A stretch of DNA of 7,338 nucleotides from a virus (Duplodnaviria > Heunggongvirae > Uroviricota > Caudoviricetes), in the IMG/VR virus record IMGVR_UViG_2711768040_000016; one strand, given 5' to 3'. Shown here piece after piece: positions 1 through 7,338 of the stretch. Position 1 is the first letter of the stretch. Every line of letters begins with the position of its first letter. The notes beneath the pieces were generated by a model, which ran no database searches, was not told where the DNA came from, and saw only the letters and a list, made by a program, of their open reading frames with translations. The translations under genes and the position numbers were made by a program.

Positions 1-219
1 TCACATCCACATAATTTGCTGCCCTGACGGCAACGGGTGCGGCCTTACGGCGTGGACTTCTCCCGGCTTCACGATGTATCTCTGTACCGACTCATAAGTG
101 ATGAACGTGGCGCTGCAATTCACGTTCTGACACTGGTGATAACGCTCTTTTGTCGTGTCAGTGATATAGCGACTTGTACGCGCATGTGCGGCATGCTGGC
201 ATAAAGGACAATGAAACAT
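1..219 (-). CDS. ogr: Ogr/Delta-family zinc-finger late transcription activator (72 aa)
   Basis: Minus-strand ORF with stop at 1..3. The track ORF 1..351 is 116 aa, but the last 72 aa starting at the ATG at 217..219 (MFHCPLCQHAAHARTSRYITDTTKERYHQCQNVNC...) carry the Cys-X2-Cys-X22-Cys-X4-Cys motif characteristic of P2 Ogr. Position directly downstream of gene D matches P2 gene order. Start chosen by length match to the 72-aa Ogr family and by the candidate promoter at 254..282, which lies inside the longer ORF. Confidence 0.88.
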   Translation of the reverse strand: MFHCPLCQHAAHARTSRYITDTTKERYHQCQNVNCSATFITYESVQRYIVKPGEVHAVRPHPLPSGQQIMWM

Positions 220-253
220 CGCGAGCACCTCTTCCGGTTTTGTTGATGTTGCC

Positions 254-282
254 ATTTTAGTTAATTTATCCTTACAAAACAA
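254..282 (-). promoter_or_regulatory. Candidate sigma70 promoter for ogr (-35 TTGTTT, 17-bp spacer, -10 TAAAAT on minus strand)
   Basis: Read on the minus strand, the D-ogr intergenic region contains TTGTTT (+ coords 277..282), a 17-nt spacer, then TAAAAT (+ coords 254..259), about 35 nt upstream of the ogr ATG. GGAAGAGG lies 8 nt upstream of the ATG as a ribosome-binding site. P2 ogr is known to have its own promoter. Hexamers were identified by eye and not scored. Confidence 0.3.
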
Positions 283-301
283 ACAGATAAAATAAAATAC
301 A

Positions 302-1465
302 TCACTCATCATCTTCTGTTTCGTACTCCACATCAGAAAGCCTGACCTCAAGCTCCAGGGACGTCGTGAAGCCGCTGTTATTCAGAAAATGTGTCACCTT
401 AGTGATTGTCCAGTCCTGCTCGTCTATGACGCGCTTAAAGCCTGACACTTTAACCGGTGTTTCCGTGTAAATATCTGCCCGACCAGTAGCCAGGCTGATG
501 GAGAACTCCGCTACACCCCGTTGCAGCTTATCCCACTTCGCCTGAGCGGCGCGCATTGCCTGCGCTTTCGTGGCATATACCGTGGTCAGGGCAAAAACGT
601 TGTCAGCCTCACCGGCCATGTATTCACCTTCCCGCGCTTCCGGTACTTTTGGCGCTTTCTTCTGCGTGACCGGTTTCGCTTTGGGGTGCTCCAGTGCGCG
701 CAGGTGTTTCTCTTTCTTTTTGCGTTTCAGTTTTACCTTCTGCTTTTGCGGCTTCGGGTCTTTGGTGTGTAGCCACTTTGCCGTTACGCCGGTGTAGGCT
801 CCACGGTCAGCAATCGCAAAATGGTGACGGTCACCATCGCTGCGGGTGATGGTAATCTGCGGGATTTTTTTACCGCTGGCCGTCACCCCCTGCCCCGCTT
901 TGAGAAACAACAGTTTTCCCATTTTTACCGACACCTCACCGCCGTTGCGTTCTGCAAGACGGGTCAGGAATTTCGCATCAGACTCCTGCGACTGGTCGAT
1001 GTGCGGGATTTTAATTCCTGCCAGTGACGGCGCGACACTGGCTTCCAGCCTGTTACGGGAGGCTATCGCCTCAACAATTGCACCGAGCGTGGTGTCATGC
1101 CAGGAGCCTTCACGGCGGGAATTGAGCGTCCCGCGAAAATCTGCACTCCGGGCGTGGATGGTGACCACATCCGGTGCGCCCCGGTGTTCAACCTCATCAA
1201 CGGTAAATTTCCCTTTGCATACCAGGGCAAAACCTTTCCAGCCGATATACACCGTCAGGACAGCGCCACGAACCGGCAGTCCGACCTGCCCGTCGGCATC
1301 GTTCAGTTCAATATCAAGCTGGTCAGCCTCAAAGCCCCGGTTATCCGTCAGGGTCATGCTCATCAGACGGTCGCTGATATTGCCGGTAATATCCCTGCTG
1401 TCGAGCATCAGCATGTAATCCGGCGTCAGCGTACTGCCTGCATCAAATGTCAGCGCATCCAGCAT
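302..1465 (-). CDS. D: Tail/baseplate hub protein D (Phage_GPD family, gp27/VgrG-N-like), 387 aa
   Basis: 387-aa minus-strand ORF starting MLDALTFDAGSTLTPDYMLMLDSR. Its length and position (after U, before ogr) match P2 gpD. The start ATG at 1463..1465 overlaps the U stop as TAATG, indicating translational coupling. Confidence 0.93.
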   Translation of the reverse strand: MLDALTFDAGSTLTPDYMLMLDSRDITGNISDRLMSMTLTDNRGFEADQLDIELNDADGQVGLPVRGAVLTVYIGWKGFALVCKGKFTVDEVEHRGAPDVVTIHARSADFRGTLNSRREGSWHDTTLGAIVEAIASRNRLEASVAPSLAGIKIPHIDQSQESDAKFLTRLAERNGGEVSVKMGKLLFLKAGQGVTASGKKIPQITITRSDGDRHHFAIADRGAYTGVTAKWLHTKDPKPQKQKVKLKRKKKEKHLRALEHPKAKPVTQKKAPKVPEAREGEYMAGEADNVFALTTVYATKAQAMRAAQAKWDKLQRGVAEFSISLATGRADIYTETPVKVSGFKRVIDEQDWTITKVTHFLNNSGFTTSLELEVRLSDVEYETEDDE

Positions 1466-1944
1466 TATCCCGCCTCCGTCATACCTGTGAATCTGGTCGC
1501 CATACTGCCGGCCTTACCGATGAGCGACTCCGCCTGTTTACCGATATCGCCATAAAGCGCGGCCAGTGATTCATCAACGCGGGTGAGCGACAGCGTAAAA
1601 TCAATTTTCCGGGGTGTGCCGTCTGCAAAGAAAATACTCCCTGTTTCACTCACCTTACTGATGACATACATGCCGTAAATCATGCCGGTGCCATCCAGCA
1701 ACGGCCACGCCCGACCTTCCTCTGCCATCAGCCTGAGCGTGGTCATCGTCAGCTTGCCGCCGGTCAGTTCGGGATAAAGCACACCGGCCAGCGTGATGTT
1801 TTCCTCACCCACACCGAGAAATTGAAAGGCATCCCGTTTGCCGATACGGGAATTTGACGGCCAGCGATAATCTGATTCACGCTGCATGGTCTGGTGTGGC
1901 AGCGTCTGGCGCATAAAAACAAACATACCTAACGCGAGCATCAT
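1465..1944 (-). CDS. U: Tail protein U (P2 gpU family), 159 aa
   Basis: 159-aa minus-strand ORF (MMLALGMFVFMRQTLPHQ...) with the length and position of P2 gpU. A strong ribosome-binding site AAGGAGGTGA lies 8 nt upstream of the ATG and overlaps the T stop codon (TAA at 1959..1961). Confidence 0.93.
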   Translation of the reverse strand: MMLALGMFVFMRQTLPHQTMQRESDYRWPSNSRIGKRDAFQFLGVGEENITLAGVLYPELTGGKLTMTTLRLMAEEGRAWPLLDGTGMIYGMYVISKVSETGSIFFADGTPRKIDFTLSLTRVDESLAALYGDIGKQAESLIGKAGSMATRFTGMTEAG

Positions 1945-1958
1945 TTTTCGTCACCTCC

Positions 1959-4406
1959 TTAACCGTCATGCATCATGCTGGCACGGGCGCGCGCACGTTT
2001 ATCCCGCTCGTATTTTTCGAGCGCATCCTGTAACTGGCGGTCAAGCTGTGTCCCCGGCGCAGTACCACCCGTCAGGCTGATGTGATATTCGTTTTTACTC
2101 TGGTCCACATAAGAGCGGCCAGCCGGTGCCGTGACCGGCTGATAAGCCTGATAGCCTGCATAAGAGCTGGTCGCCGGAATATAACCACCGCTGCCATACG
2201 TGGCGACTTGAGTTCTGGCGGCGGTCTGGTCAAGTGTGTCTGACTCTTTGTTGATAACACCGAGTTTTTCCAGTACCCAGTCAATACCGCTGCGCAGTTT
2301 GTTGAACGCATTAAGCGGCAGCATCAGCGCGTCAGCCAGTGCCTGCCCGAACATGACGCCCGTGTCACGGCAACGGTTCAGGGTGTCCTGGGTGGCTTTA
2401 ACCGGGTCAATCAGGTTTTTAAACCACTGCCACGCGGCCTGTAACTTTTCGCCCAGCCAGTCAAACAGCGGCTTAAGTGGCGTGAACAGTTCCCCCACCG
2501 GCGCAAATGCTGCTTTCAGCCCTTCAACCACACCGCCAAAGAATGCGCTGACAGGCTCCCAGTATTTACGGATAAGCAACGCCCCGGCGACAATGGCGGC
2601 CACCACGGCCACAACCGGCCAGCTAATCGCCCCGATGGCCGTCATAACGGCACTGCCAACCGTCGTGAAGATTGCCCCCATTGCGCCTGCTGCCGCGATA
2701 ATGGCATTGATGCCGGTGATAACCGGCCAGGCTACAAGACCAATGGCACCGATGATGCCAGTAAGCGCCAGTGCGCCACCGACAATGAGGCCGATGGTTG
2801 ACGCCAGTGATTTGTTTTTCTTGATCCAGCCGTCTAGTTTTAACACATACTTTGTGGCCGTCTGCGTGAGATTACGCAGTGCGCCTTCCTGCTGGTCAAA
2901 CAGGTCAGTCCCCACTGCCTCATAAGCGGACTGAAACTCCTTAAAGTCACCGCCGAGGTTGTCCTGCATGATATTTACCAGCTCGGCGGTCTTCCCGTCT
3001 GAGGCTTTAAACGCAACGGTCAGTTTGTCCAGCTTTCCGGTTGAGGCGGCAGTCATCAGCACGGCAGCGGCTGAGCTGGCCTCCTCCCCGAAAATAGTTT
3101 TCATGTATTCAGCCTGCTGGGCAGTACCGAGCCGGTTTTTCTCAAAACTGGCCTGCATTTCTTTCAGAATGGTAAATATTGGCCGGGTGTTTCCCTTGCT
3201 GTCTGAGGTTTTCACTCCAAGCTCTTTGAGTGCATCCCATGCTTTTCCCGTCGGTGCCTGCAGGCGGCTTAACACGGCACGGCTTCCCGTCCCCGCCATT
3301 GAACCGGTAATTTTTGCATCATGCAGCGCCCCGACCATTGCGGCGGTTTCTTCAATGCTGACACCGGCATTTTTTGCCACAGGTGCGGCATAGGTCAGCG
3401 CATCGCTCATGCCGTCAAAATCGGCGGCGGTTTTGTTCATCGTCATGGAGAGAACATCCCCGATATGAGCGACCTTATCGTTTGAAAGCTGAAAGGCGGA
3501 TTTCATCCCCATCAGCAGGGCGGCGTTTTCTTCCATCGTGCGGCGGTTCGCCAGCGCCATATTCAGCGTGACCGGCGTTGCCGCCTGAATGGCATCAACA
3601 TCCCCACCCGCTTTCGCGATGATTATCTGTGCACCGGCCGCATCATCCGCCGAGGCGGCGGTATTATCGCCGAGCTGGCGCGCCTGTTTGCGTAGTGCGG
3701 TCATTTCGGCGGAGTCTTTTGCCACTCCGAGCACGGCCTGCAATTCTGAGTTTTTCTGCGCAAACTCATAACCGGGCATCAGCAGCTTAACTCCGGCCAT
3801 CGTTCCCGCAGCAGCAATCCCCACACCAGCAGCGCCCACTGAGGCCATGTTTCCGGCCAGTTCCTTTCCGGCCTGATAACGCTGTTTTACTGCATTAAGT
3901 TTTGCCTGTTGCGCACTGACACGCGCCAGCGCGTCACGCTGCCGGTTAAGCTGTGCGGTGGTTTCACTGATACGGTTTTTCAGCCCCAGCTCATCATGTG
4001 CAAGATTGCGGGTATTAATTCCCACAGCGGCCAGTTCCCGCTGCTGGCGTTTAACGGAATCTGTCAGGCGGTTATATTTCGCCTGTAAGTCCTCCGCCGC
4101 ACGCTTTGCGGATTCCAGCACTTTCGCCTGAGCACGGGTCGGACGTTCGGTGTTTTTAAACTGTGTGGCAAGGGCTTCGGCCTCCTGCCGTGCCTTTTCA
4201 AGTGCATGACCAGTCACGGCGAGCTGTGCACTGGTCTTGCGGAATCCCTCAATACGGGATGCCTGACCGTTCAGCTCGCGCAGTGATTTTTGTGTTTCCC
4301 GGATATCCCCCGACAGCGATTTGCTCGCTGTGCGGATGGATTTAAACGGGCGGGATGCCTGGTCAACAGCCCTGAGCAATACCTGTAATTTTACATTGTT
4401 ACTCAT
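1959..4406 (-). CDS. T: Tail tape-measure protein T, 815 aa
   Basis: 815-aa minus-strand ORF, the length of P2 gpT. The N-terminal third is Q/A/R/L-rich and coiled-coil-like. A long Gly/Ala/Ile-rich hydrophobic segment (LASTIGLIVGGALALTGIIGAIGLVAWPVITGINAIIAAAGAMGAIF...) sits at roughly nt 2575..2830, as is typical of tape-measure proteins. The start ATG at 4404..4406 overlaps the E' stop as ATGAGTAA, and the first codons decode to MSNNVK. Confidence 0.95.
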   Translation of the reverse strand: MSNNVKLQVLLRAVDQASRPFKSIRTASKSLSGDIRETQKSLRELNGQASRIEGFRKTSAQLAVTGHALEKARQEAEALATQFKNTERPTRAQAKVLESAKRAAEDLQAKYNRLTDSVKRQQRELAAVGINTRNLAHDELGLKNRISETTAQLNRQRDALARVSAQQAKLNAVKQRYQAGKELAGNMASVGAAGVGIAAAGTMAGVKLLMPGYEFAQKNSELQAVLGVAKDSAEMTALRKQARQLGDNTAASADDAAGAQIIIAKAGGDVDAIQAATPVTLNMALANRRTMEENAALLMGMKSAFQLSNDKVAHIGDVLSMTMNKTAADFDGMSDALTYAAPVAKNAGVSIEETAAMVGALHDAKITGSMAGTGSRAVLSRLQAPTGKAWDALKELGVKTSDSKGNTRPIFTILKEMQASFEKNRLGTAQQAEYMKTIFGEEASSAAAVLMTAASTGKLDKLTVAFKASDGKTAELVNIMQDNLGGDFKEFQSAYEAVGTDLFDQQEGALRNLTQTATKYVLKLDGWIKKNKSLASTIGLIVGGALALTGIIGAIGLVAWPVITGINAIIAAAGAMGAIFTTVGSAVMTAIGAISWPVVAVVAAIVAGALLIRKYWEPVSAFFGGVVEGLKAAFAPVGELFTPLKPLFDWLGEKLQAAWQWFKNLIDPVKATQDTLNRCRDTGVMFGQALADALMLPLNAFNKLRSGIDWVLEKLGVINKESDTLDQTAARTQVATYGSGGYIPATSSYAGYQAYQPVTAPAGRSYVDQSKNEYHISLTGGTAPGTQLDRQLQDALEKYERDKRARARASMMHDG

Positions 4407-4826
4407 TCGTGTTTCCGCTTCGCCGGAGCGCCTTTTCGCGCCATGTGATGAGTTCGGTCAGGCTCATGGGATACAGTTCTGATGGCGGCCAGTGAAATAT
4501 CACTGCCACATCCGCCATCAGGTCATCGACCGAGAGATTTTTCGGAAACGTCACTGCACCGAGTTCGGCGACAAAAAACCGACCACCTTACCGGCCAGCG
4601 CCACAAGGTCAGGCAGTTCCAGCGCGGCGACTTCCTGCTCGGTCAGCATCGGTGCCGTCATGCGCGGCAGCACCTTAATCAGTGCATCGACTTCGGAGTT
4701 TGCAACCGCAGCCAGACTGACACCGCGTAGCGTCCCGGCATTGGGTTTCATCAGCGTGACCTGTTCGATAACCTGCTCACCACGTTTGACCGGATTGTCC
4801 AGGGTAATGACATTTTCTTTGTTCAT
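4399..4826 (-). CDS. E': Tail assembly chaperone E+E' fusion made by -1 programmed ribosomal frameshift, about 142 aa
   Basis: After the slippery site at 4572..4578, the -1 frame stays open for 57 codons (VAELGAVTFPKNLSVDDLMADVAVIFHWPPSELYPMSLTELITWREKALRRSGNTNE), decoded by hand, and ends at TAA 4399..4401, overlapping the T start. 85 + 57 = 142 aa, the size of P2 E+E'. The arrangement is analogous to lambda G/GT. Confidence 0.8.
4551..4826 (-). CDS. E: Tail assembly chaperone E (zero-frame product), 91 aa
   Basis: 91-aa minus-strand ORF (MNKENVITLDNPVKRGEQVIEQ...GKVVGFLSPNSVQ) matching the size and position of P2 gpE, between FII and T. It contains the slippery heptamer near its 3' end. 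Confidence 0.9.
   Translation of the reverse strand: MNKENVITLDNPVKRGEQVIEQVTLMKPNAGTLRGVSLAAVANSEVDALIKVLPRMTAPMLTEQEVAALELPDLVALAGKVVGFLSPNSVQ
4572..4578 (-). other. Slippery heptamer T_TTT_TTG for the E/E' -1 frameshift
   Basis: Minus-strand sequence GGT TTT TTG in the E zero frame (codons Gly-Phe-Leu); the + strand shows caaaaaa at 4572..4578. This fits the X_XXY_YYZ pattern and matches the slippery sequence described for the P2 FETUD operon. Confidence 0.75.
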
Positions 4827-4854
4827 GGTTTTCTCACTTCTGAATCAGGGTTAA

Positions 4855-4875
4855 CCGGCCAGCCAGGCTGACCGG
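4855..4875 (-). other. GC-rich inverted repeat (potential RNA stem-loop) in the FII-E intergenic region
   Basis: Minus-strand CCGGUCAGCC-U-GGCUGGCCGG can form a stem of about 8 bp (one G-U pair) with a roughly 5-nt loop. It is not followed by a U-tract, so it is not a canonical intrinsic terminator. Judged by eye, no energy calculation. Confidence 0.25.
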
Positions 4876-4882
4876 ATGAAAA

Positions 4883-5401
4883 TCACAGGCCGATATTTCG
4901 GCGGTGTTGCTCCAGCCGGTCGACGCCGTTCACCTTCTCAATCATGTTGATGGTGTCGATTTCGACCAGCTCCTTGCCGTCCATCGTCAGCCGGAAATAG
5001 GTGCAGACCACGGAGATTTTCGACTCGGTGTCTTCTCCCTGTTTACCCTCGCCGGTGTCGATTTCTTTCTGACGTCCACGCATGACCACTTCGACGGCCA
5101 CCGTTTCGCCGGTATCGTCGCGCTGGTAAGAGCCTGCAAAACGAATCGGCACGGCATCCACACCAGTTGCGGCGTAAAGCTCCCAGATAACCGAATCCGG
5201 GAAGCCACCGAGCGACCACTCCATTGACAGCGCATCGTCATCAAGGCCGAGGTCTACCGGTGCGCTGCCGTTCATCCCCGCACCGCGATAGTTTTCGAGC
5301 TTACGGGTCAGTTTTGGCAGCGTGACGGACTTTGCAACGCCCTGATAGCTGTAGCCGTTCAGAAAGACGTTCATTAACTTGAGTTTGCGCGGCATTGCCA
5401 T
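4883..5401 (-). CDS. FII: Tail tube protein FII, 172 aa
   Basis: 172-aa minus-strand ORF (MAMPRKLKLMNVFLNGYSYQGVAKSV...) with the length and position of P2 gpFII. Ribosome-binding site AAGGAG lies 8 nt upstream and overlaps the FI stop codon. Confidence 0.94.
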   Translation of the reverse strand: MAMPRKLKLMNVFLNGYSYQGVAKSVTLPKLTRKLENYRGAGMNGSAPVDLGLDDDALSMEWSLGGFPDSVIWELYAATGVDAVPIRFAGSYQRDDTGETVAVEVVMRGRQKEIDTGEGKQGEDTESKISVVCTYFRLTMDGKELVEIDTINMIEKVNGVDRLEQHRRNIGL

Positions 5402-5413
5402 CGGTCAGGCTCC

Positions 5414-6604
5414 TTAATTGCTGTTAACCGAGGTGACCAGATTTGCCAGGTATTTATCGGTAATACGCTGGCGCAGGGTCAGGTTTTCGAGAGGAGGCAC
5501 CGGGGTATAGTCATAGTCGATATACAGTTTTCCGGCCTTGAGGGTTTCCGCATCGTTGGATTCTTCGCTGAACCAGCAGGTCGCATCCACGATATAGCCG
5601 TTTGTTTTCAGCTCACGGAATTTGGCATTGATGCCGTCAACGATGTCGCGAATCAGCGTTGCGGTGATGGGCTTGTCCACCGCCCACATGTGCGCCTCAG
5701 CCATCGTGTCGGCCAGCACCTGCGCGGTGCGGGTGTAGTTTTCAAAGAGGAACAGCGGGTCATCAGAGCAGGTACGGTTACCCCAGAAGCGGAAACCGTC
5801 GCGGCGAATCAGTGTAGTGACGCCTGACTCATTAAGCAGGTCAGCATCGGTGCCGGACTCCTGCAAATCCCAGAATACAGAGGCGCTGATGCCGGTAACA
5901 CCGTTCACCCCGACATTGGATAGCGTTTTATGCCAGCCCTGCTCCTGGTCAATTCTGGCACGCAGACCCAGCGCACGGGCGGTGGCATACGCGGTGGCGG
6001 TAGTACTGGTGACCGTATCCCATGCGAGGAAATCCGGCCAGATGACCATCAGCTCACGCTGGCTGAAATTCTGACGGTAGGCTTTCACCTCGGAAATGGT
6101 TTTACAGTCCCATGCGCTGATATACCCGAAAGCGCGCAGCTTCTGACAGACGGATGCCAGTGCAACAGCCACCTCTTTGGTGTCCAGTCCCGGCACACCG
6201 AGAATACGCGGTTTAACACCGGTTACCGACTCCGCCGCCAGCAGGGCTTTCAGTCCGGTGTACTGACCATTTTCGTCGGTGGTGCCGATGATATTGGAAA
6301 CGGTCTGCGCGAGTTTCGTTTCTTCGTCGTCGCCGGTGCCGTCTTCCACACGCACGACAACGGTGACCGGTTTTGACTGGTCGGCGATGGCCTGCAACGA
6401 TGCCGCCAGCGTGCCTTTTTTACCGGCCTTTGCAATTGCGCTCTGCACATTGGTAATCAGCACCGGTTTATTGAGGGGGAAGATTTCCGCATCCGCATCG
6501 CTGGCCGTGCAGACCATGCCGACAATGGCAGTGGATACGGTGGAAATGACGCGGGTGCCGTCGTTAATCTCCAGCACCTGCACGCCGTGATGATAGTCAC
6601 TCAT
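5414..6604 (-). CDS. FI: Contractile tail sheath protein FI, 396 aa
   Basis: 396-aa minus-strand ORF (MSDYHHGVQVLEINDGTRVISTVS...) with the length and position of P2 gpFI, first gene of the FI-FII-E-T-U-D operon. Ribosome-binding site GGAG lies 8 nt upstream of the ATG at 6602..6604. Confidence 0.94.
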   Translation of the reverse strand: MSDYHHGVQVLEINDGTRVISTVSTAIVGMVCTASDADAEIFPLNKPVLITNVQSAIAKAGKKGTLAASLQAIADQSKPVTVVVRVEDGTGDDEETKLAQTVSNIIGTTDENGQYTGLKALLAAESVTGVKPRILGVPGLDTKEVAVALASVCQKLRAFGYISAWDCKTISEVKAYRQNFSQRELMVIWPDFLAWDTVTSTTATAYATARALGLRARIDQEQGWHKTLSNVGVNGVTGISASVFWDLQESGTDADLLNESGVTTLIRRDGFRFWGNRTCSDDPLFLFENYTRTAQVLADTMAEAHMWAVDKPITATLIRDIVDGINAKFRELKTNGYIVDATCWFSEESNDAETLKAGKLYIDYDYTPVPPLENLTLRQRITDKYLANLVTSVNSN

Positions 6605-6628
6605 CCGTTTAACTCCGTGGTTAATGGG

Positions 6629-6696
6629 TGAGTGGTATTTTCAGTTGTGCCGGAGATGTCAGGCTATTTGTCCCGGTTGGCTAAGGGATGACACAA
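6629..6696 (-). promoter_or_regulatory. Candidate Ogr-dependent late promoter for the FI operon (imperfect TGT-N12-ACA-type dyad)
   Basis: P2 late promoters carry a TGT-N12-ACA dyad centred near -55. No exact match occurs upstream of FI. The nearest is TGT-N12-CCA on the minus strand (+ coords 6678..6695), about 55 bp upstream of a weak AAAATA -10-like element (+ 6636..6641). If real, it overlaps the 3' end of the invertase gene. Weak evidence. Confidence 0.18.
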
Positions 6697-7257
6697 TTTA
6701 TTCTTTGTCACTGATGAGGGGAATTTTTTATAGAGCGTGGACAGGCCAATATCAAAAATCAGCGCCACACGTTGACGAGATTCCCCCGCAGCCAGCAACC
6801 GTCCGACCTGCTCCCACTCACTCGCGGTGAGTTTCGGACGTCTGCCACCAATACGACCTTTGGCTCTGGCCGCTTCCAGTCCGGCGCGTGTCCGCTCGAC
6901 AATGAGTTCTCGCTCCATTTCAGCCAGGGCACCCATCACATGAAAGAAAAAACGCCCCATCGGCGTGCTGGTATCAATAGCATCCGTCAGACTGCGAAAA
7001 TTAACGCCGCGTTCGCGCAGTTCCTCAACCAGAATGACCAGATGCCGCATACTACGCCCCAGCCTGTCCAGCTTCCAGACTACCAGTGTGTCACCTGCTG
7101 ATAATGTTCTGAGCAGTTTTTTCAGTCCCGGTCTGTCGGACTTCGTGCCGCTGATTTTATCCTCAAAAATCCGCTCGCATCCTGCGCACTCCAGCGCGTT
7201 ACGCTGCAATTCCGTGTTCTGGTCATTTGTTGACACGCGTACATAGCCAATAAGCAT
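6664..7257 (-). CDS. Serine-recombinase DNA invertase (Gin/Pin/Hin/Cin family), about 197 aa
   Basis: The minus-strand ORF translates to MLIGYVRVSTNDQNTELQRNALECAGCERIFEDKISGTKSDRPGLKKLL...GDTLVVWKLDRLGRSM...MGRFFFHVMGALAEMERELIVERTRAGL...GRIGGRRPKL...LSTLYKKF, which is near-colinear with Mu Gin as I recall it. It includes the catalytic serine motif YVRVSTNDQ and a C-terminal helix-turn-helix. The track ORF starts two codons earlier at 7263, but GGGGG directly abuts that ATG; the ATG at 7255..7257 has better ribosome-binding-site spacing and matches the Gin N-terminus. Confidence 0.92.
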   Translation of the reverse strand: MLIGYVRVSTNDQNTELQRNALECAGCERIFEDKISGTKSDRPGLKKLLRTLSAGDTLVVWKLDRLGRSMRHLVILVEELRERGVNFRSLTDAIDTSTPMGRFFFHVMGALAEMERELIVERTRAGLEAARAKGRIGGRRPKLTASEWEQVGRLLAAGESRQRVALIFDIGLSTLYKKFPSSVTKNKLCHPLANRDK

Positions 7258-7312
7258 GAGCATCCCCCTGAATAAAAACCGGAGATGATGCCAGTTGCCC
7301 GTTATCTCTGCA

Positions 7313-7338
7313 TTTTCATAAACGTTGGTTTGGGAGAA
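7313..7338. other. hix/gix/cix-like 26-bp invertase crossover site
   Basis: The reverse complement of 7313..7338 is TTCTCCCAAACC-AA-CGTTTATGAAAA: two imperfect 12-bp half-sites around a central AA dinucleotide. It resembles hixL (TTCTTGAAAACCAAGGTTTTTGATAA) and gix as I recall them. It lies about 55 bp upstream of the invertase start, the expected position for the invertase-proximal inverted repeat. The partner site would be outside the window. Confidence 0.55.

Follow-up and report, generated by a model that had tools for sequence, protein, structure and literature searches.

The question raised by this locus is how the F operon of a P2-like phage is transcribed when the gene for a serine invertase ends only 59 bp ahead of its first gene, FI. 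The window, that is, the whole stretch of DNA that was analyzed (7,338 nt), carries all of its genes on the minus strand, with the invertase and FI in the same orientation:

219..1, minus strand: ogr (Pfam Ogr_Delta zinc finger)
1465..302, minus strand: D
1944..1465, minus strand: U
4406..1959, minus strand: T
4826..4399, minus strand: E/E'
5401..4883, minus strand: FII
6604..5414, minus strand: FI, tail sheath, gene 1 of the F operon (Pfam sheath domains; 98% identity to P2 FI)
7263..6664, minus strand: Gin-like serine invertase (Pfam Resolvase and HTH_7)

Comparison by blastn revealed that positions 3-6684 of the window are colinear with P2 17572-24252 at 97.4% identity. Positions 2100-7338 (5239 nt) match a prophage of E. 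coli WP3-S18-ESBL-09 with 100% identity. The Ogr protein of the window is the same as P2 Ogr in 72 of 72 residues. An Rfam scan of the whole window gave no match. Inside E (4826..4551) a slippery TTTTTTG (4572-4578, minus strand) was found at the position annotated in P2 as the -1 frameshift site (P2 19685), the source of E+E'; the E' frame, which extends as far as 4399, overlaps with the beginning of T.

The protein encoded next to FI matches the invertase families PF00239 (8e-53) and PF02796 (5.5e-13) in Pfam, and its residues 3-184 align with Mu Gin (structures 3uj3 and 4m6f) with E = 5.5e-94. Translation probably starts at the second ATG (7257), which gives a protein of 197 aa and agrees with a 594-nt RefSeq CDS in the identical prophage. 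As in the Gin, Hin, Cin and Pin systems, resolvase and HTH_7 domains are combined in about 190 aa, and the adjacent segment has inverted crossover sites of ~26 bp. The right crossover site (7313-7338, minus-strand TTCTCCCAAACCAACGTTTATGAAAA) is located at the window end. In the identical prophage an inverted partner lies 1862 nt away, the two 27-nt sequences (L011 2053-2079 and 3942-3968) being 81% complementary, and between them lie two sets of genes for the tail-fibre C-terminus and assembly, in opposite orientations, comparable to the G segment of Mu. A weak hairpin AACTGGCATCATCTCCGGTT followed by TTTATTC (7277-7296, minus strand) separates the crossover site from the ribosome-binding site of the invertase. 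A scan of 7264-7338 for a sigma-70-like invertase promoter returned none. A previous inspection, made from the letters alone (the sequence-only reading), had placed the invertase in the slot that Z/fun occupies in P2, and this placement is correct according to the P2 record, the identical prophage and the Z-region records of P2-EC phages.

The same reading gave the distance between the two genes as 59 bp, which we confirm: the invertase stop (TAG) is at 6666..6664 and the FI ATG at 6604, leaving a gap at 6605-6663 in which the FI Shine-Dalgarno sequence, GGAG, occupies 6616..6613 (minus strand). A consensus for P2 late promoters has been quoted (PMC3931495), and its textbook form is TGT-N12-ACA. 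As had been stated, no exact TGT-N12-ACA is present in the window (1.76 expected), and the candidate proposed in its place, TGT-N12-CCA at 6695..6678 (minus strand), proved to be the right site. The premise that the F-operon promoter PF needs an exact TGT-N12-ACA was wrong, since P2 PF, P2 PO/PP, 186 pJ and 186 pV/p12 are all TGT-N12-CCA. In P2 the exact form occurs at five positions, none of which is at an annotated activator site. The activator site of P2 PV (L009 10239-10266) reads as TGT-N11-ACA or TGT-N14-ACA, not N12. As the PV spacing departs from N12, the three activator sites annotated in P2 all lack the exact sequence. The textbook TGT-N12-ACA describes a consensus rather than a rule. 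With P2 PF, PO/PP and two 186 sites all of the CCA form, scans for the exact dyad miss real P2-like late promoters, and a useful by-product of this analysis is that exact TGT-N12-ACA is unsuitable as a strict search pattern.

When one mismatch to TGT-N12-ACA was allowed, 29 occurrences were found in the window against 32.4 expected. The dyad pattern on its own thus occurs at chance frequency, and the significance of the site can come only from its position and homology. A longer pattern read from the annotated sites, TTGTG-N11-CCA, is common to P2 PF, P2 PO/PP, 186 pJ and 186 pV/p12. It matched once in the window (6696..6678; 0.32 expected), in P2 only at the two annotated sites, and three times in 186, where two of the three matches are annotated B-protein sites.

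For the comparison with P2, window positions were calculated as 24256 minus the P2 position; the status of the P2 and 186 features is that given by GenBank annotation. The P2 record contains an 'activator binding site; activation of pF promoter' at 17555-17583, a 'transcription start site for F operon' at 17626-17628, and FI at 17652. The site in the window aligns exactly with this annotated activator site, which in P2 has the form TGT-GCTGTCGATTAG-CCA. Going upstream from the FI ATG, the two sequences align without gaps as far as TTAGCCAACCGGGACAAATAGCC with a single substitution, at 6648, which is also the only one from the final four bases of the spacer down to the ATG. Eight of the first nine bases of the spacer differ from P2 and resemble the spacers of Wphi and L-413C. 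Beyond this divergent stretch TTGTG is again conserved between the window and P2. The following parts were assigned:

6701..6673, minus strand: predicted Ogr binding region of PF (homology to P2 17555-17583; alignment of 16 phages)
6695..6693, minus strand: left half-site TGT, within TTGTG at 6696..6692 (invariant in 16/16; annotated P2 and 186 sites)
6680..6678, minus strand: right half-site CCA, in place of the textbook ACA (CA invariant; P2 PF also CCA)
6671..6663, minus strand: ACAAATAGC block in the -35 region, holding the invertase TAG at 6666..6664 (identical in 14/16)
6642..6637, minus strand: -10-like GAAAAT (GA.AATA invariant in the 16; placed from the P2-annotated start)
6630..6628, minus strand: predicted start of the FI-FII-E-T-U-D operon (homology to P2 17626-17628; flanks identical)

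The center of the dyad is ~57 bp (57.5) upstream of the start predicted by homology. This start would lie 24-26 nt before the FI ATG, as in P2, and the ACAAATAGC block is at about -42..-34 relative to the P2-annotated start. No promoter was detected in 6400-7338 by a sigma-70 consensus scan, as expected of a promoter that depends on an activator. We considered CTGACA at 6662..6657, a 5/6 match to TTGACA, as the -35 hexamer and rejected it, the distance to the -10 being only 14 bp. A sigma-70 -35 hexamer does not explain the role of the ACAAATAGC block, with which P2 PO shares only CCGGGAC..AT.GC. The form and position of the dyad, the short leader to the sheath gene, a -10 lacking a good -35, and an Ogr of its own are all features that the window has in common with the PF/pJ class.

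To this comparison we added an alignment of FI upstream regions from 16 P2/186-like phages, the hosts of which belong to Escherichia, Salmonella, Yersinia, Erwinia and Klebsiella. TGT is invariant in all 16. The CA of the right half-site is invariant as well and is preceded by C in 12 phages and by A in the other four (PSP3, SEN1, KpST147 and F1055). The 12-bp spacer is variable. Downstream of the dyad, the ACAAATAGC block is identical in 14 of the 16, GA.AATA in the -10 region does not vary, and there is almost no variation in the leader and Shine-Dalgarno sequence. Upstream of TGT the phages fall into unrelated sequence classes. A GC-rich hairpin followed by TTTTCTTT is present in P2, Wphi, fiAA91-ss, L-413C, 186, PSP3, SEN1, MDG94 and F1055, and Midge has the same class of hairpin with a variant T-run; the hairpin upstream of pJ in 186 is the annotated terminator t45. 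The 3' end of an invertase occupies this place in the window, pro483, S164 and the 186-like 613R3, and in EtG and KpST147 both the hairpin with its T-run and an invertase 3' end are missing.

One of these phages, F1055, contains a complete PF-type promoter together with about the first 30 FI codons (L014 400-640), after which the sequence becomes unrelated; the divergent stretch adjoins a gene for a glycosyltransferase that is encoded on the other strand. The arrangement resembles a cargo insertion flanked by a partial duplicate of PF and the FI 5' end.

On the evidence of the two alignments, we consider it very probable that the late promoter PF of P2 is present at 6701..6628 (minus strand), located as in P2 and with an essentially normal sequence. 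The suggestion that the late promoter is embedded in the 3' end of the invertase gene is supported by both the P2 comparison and the 16-phage alignment. It has been reported that Ogr binds inverted repeats centered near -55 of P2 late promoters and that contact with the alpha subunit is needed (PMC3152322). By homology, the partial dyad TGT-N12-CCA at 6695..6678 would be bound by Ogr, the gene for which is at the opposite end of the window. Through contact with the alpha subunit, Ogr would recruit RNA polymerase to this promoter, in which the -35 region is weak and the -10 is GAAAAT. Transcription would then proceed from about 6630..6628 through FI, FII, E/E', T, U and D. Binding by Ogr is predicted here, and the putative start and dependence on Ogr are transferred from the P2 annotation. 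The promoter is the characterised PF of P2 and its arrangement with the invertase is ordinary and already known; the significance of the locus goes little beyond annotation.

The last ten codons of the invertase are TTG TGT CAT CCC TTA GCC AAC CGG GAC AAA (6696..6667). Judged by alignment, these codons and the TAG that follows them are PF promoter DNA. Analysis by blastn detected 72% DNA identity to Mu gin in 6718-7256 of the window, similarity to Mu ending at 6718 and similarity to P2 at 6684, which locates the junction as follows:

6717..6685, minus strand: junction of the Gin-like module and the P2 backbone, with TTGTG at 6696..6692

BLAST matches of invertase-less phages to the window begin exactly at 6696 or 6684, and in the 'Z-region' records of P2-EC phages the variable part ends just before the PF site. 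From these observations it follows that the boundary of the module and the upstream limit of the Ogr site coincide. This limit is the right boundary of the variable Z slot, and cargo in the slot, here a Gin-like invertase, can take promoter DNA as its last codons. Because the Gin-like invertase, together with its invertible tail-fibre segment, replaces P2 Z/fun up to the edge of the site, the ORF crosses the site and its TAG falls in the ACAAATAGC block. We also asked whether the invertase has an abnormally long tail. This was rejected: in Mu Gin (193 aa), too, 11 aa after the HTH domain are left unaligned, and the protein encoded here has 197-199 aa.

The same junction was found in the isolated phages pro483, S164 and MET_P1_103_31, in the record of a 'P2' from E. 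coli O157:H43, and in 603 of 5426 complete E. coli genomes (~1/9). The 186-like phage vB_EcoM-613R3 has a truncated invertase ORF of 315 nt in the same slot (L008 1194-1508), which reads through the entire pJ-type promoter as far as a TAA stop located in the -10 region. The junction in 613R3 indicates that joining of an invertase to this promoter is common to the P2-like and 186-like lineages.

It could also be proposed that FI-D are transcribed mainly by read-through, either from a promoter of the invertase itself or from the PV tail-fibre operon, and that TGT-N12-CCA is not a working element. On this view, the same transcripts would carry the invertase together with the late tail genes. Such read-through would be helped by the common orientation of the invertase and FI and by the absence, according to folding and alignment, of a hairpin or terminator between the invertase body and FI. 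In P2 the hairpin and U-run upstream of PF (P2 L001 515-556) have a folding energy of -11.3 kcal/mol and 186 has t45, whereas the matching 64 nt of the window (6697-6760) reach only -3.5 kcal/mol (z = +1.1). The terminator scan that we used is insensitive, having found 0 of the annotated terminators in P2 14700-17700, and the absence upstream of PF therefore rests on folding and alignment. Against this explanation, PF is almost unchanged and its half-sites are invariant over 16 phages, which is hard to explain if the promoter is not used. The Ogr protein is intact and does not differ from that of P2, and a scan of 6400-7338 found no sigma-70-like promoter that could provide strong expression. 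Gin-type invertases are weakly expressed, and expression at such a level would not supply major structural proteins. Overall, we regard read-through as a highly unlikely main source of FI-D transcripts. A further possibility, that TGT-N12-CCA matches only by chance and that FI is driven from an Ogr-independent promoter within the 59-bp gap, is less credible still: the dyad with one mismatch does occur at chance frequency (29 against 32.4 expected), but no match to the sigma-70 consensus was found in the region, the site corresponds precisely in the alignment to the activator site annotated in P2, and across diverged phages the half-sites are conserved while the spacer and the upstream flank are not.

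Returning to PF as the promoter of FI-D, its intact and conserved state makes read-through unnecessary as a source of tail-gene transcripts, and the sequence-only reading, which had offered read-through as the other way of expressing these genes, was in this respect mistaken. A weak, minor contribution is possible. Since phages with an invertase are without the hairpin, PF in them is not insulated from transcription of the invertase, and invertase transcripts probably continue into FI.

Loss of the terminator, combined with an ORF that runs across the Ogr site, might couple the invertase and PF functionally. We consider this unlikely, and it could take one of two forms. Basal transcription of the invertase in a lysogen would pass through FI...D into ogr and result in leaky Ogr expression. 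Alternatively, Ogr and RNA polymerase positioned at PF late in infection would block transcription of the invertase before its stop codon. In that case non-stop mRNAs would be produced and inversion of the tail-fibre segment would be shut off during virion assembly.

Terminator-like matches inside the invertase ORF (6966-6952, 7020-7007 and 6777-6763) were considered and set aside as incidental, being conserved coding sequence. The best terminator-like hairpin of the region is the one at 6952-6966 (minus strand), ACGCCGATGGGGCGT followed by TTTTTCTTTC. It encodes the conserved motif TPMGRFFFHV and is probably incidental.

The closest known counterpart is P2 PF, which has the same position, the same 48 bp from the dyad to the start region and the same TGT-N12-CCA. 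It also shares with the window the block in the -35 region, the -10, the leader, the Shine-Dalgarno sequence and the protein sequence of the activator. It differs in eight of the first nine spacer bases and in having the hairpin and T-run, with Z/fun, upstream of TTGTG, where the window has the 3' end of the invertase. In 186, the homologous promoter pJ precedes J, the homologue of FI; its annotated B site has the form TGT-N12-CCA, and both the leader and the ACAAATAGC block are conserved. Identity over the region is ~73%, the annotated terminator t45 precedes pJ, and 186 has no invertase, only a relic 'Mu-like inversion crossover site' in a tail-fibre gene.

The G-segment, gin and mom region of Mu has the same order as the locus described here: fibre and assembly genes, their inverted alternatives, the invertase and a late operon in the same orientation. 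The gap from gin to the late operon is 94 bp in Mu, compared to 59 bp from the invertase to FI, and the invertases align over 182 residues with a DNA identity of 72%. It is known that the com-mom operon of Mu is activated by the Mu C protein. The difference is in the late operon downstream, which is com-mom in Mu, whereas in the window it is the tail-sheath operon with activation that is predicted to be of the Ogr type.

The Z-region variants of P2 (P2-EC30, P2-EC46, P2-EC48 and others) use the same hypervariable slot between G and FI, bounded on the right by PF, and their homology to the window starts exactly at the TGT half-site, at 6696. These variants carry lysogenic-conversion cargo ORFs with annotated inverted repeats and have non-coding DNA before PF. 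In the window, by contrast, the slot holds an invertase, the ORF of which abuts the activator site and overruns it.
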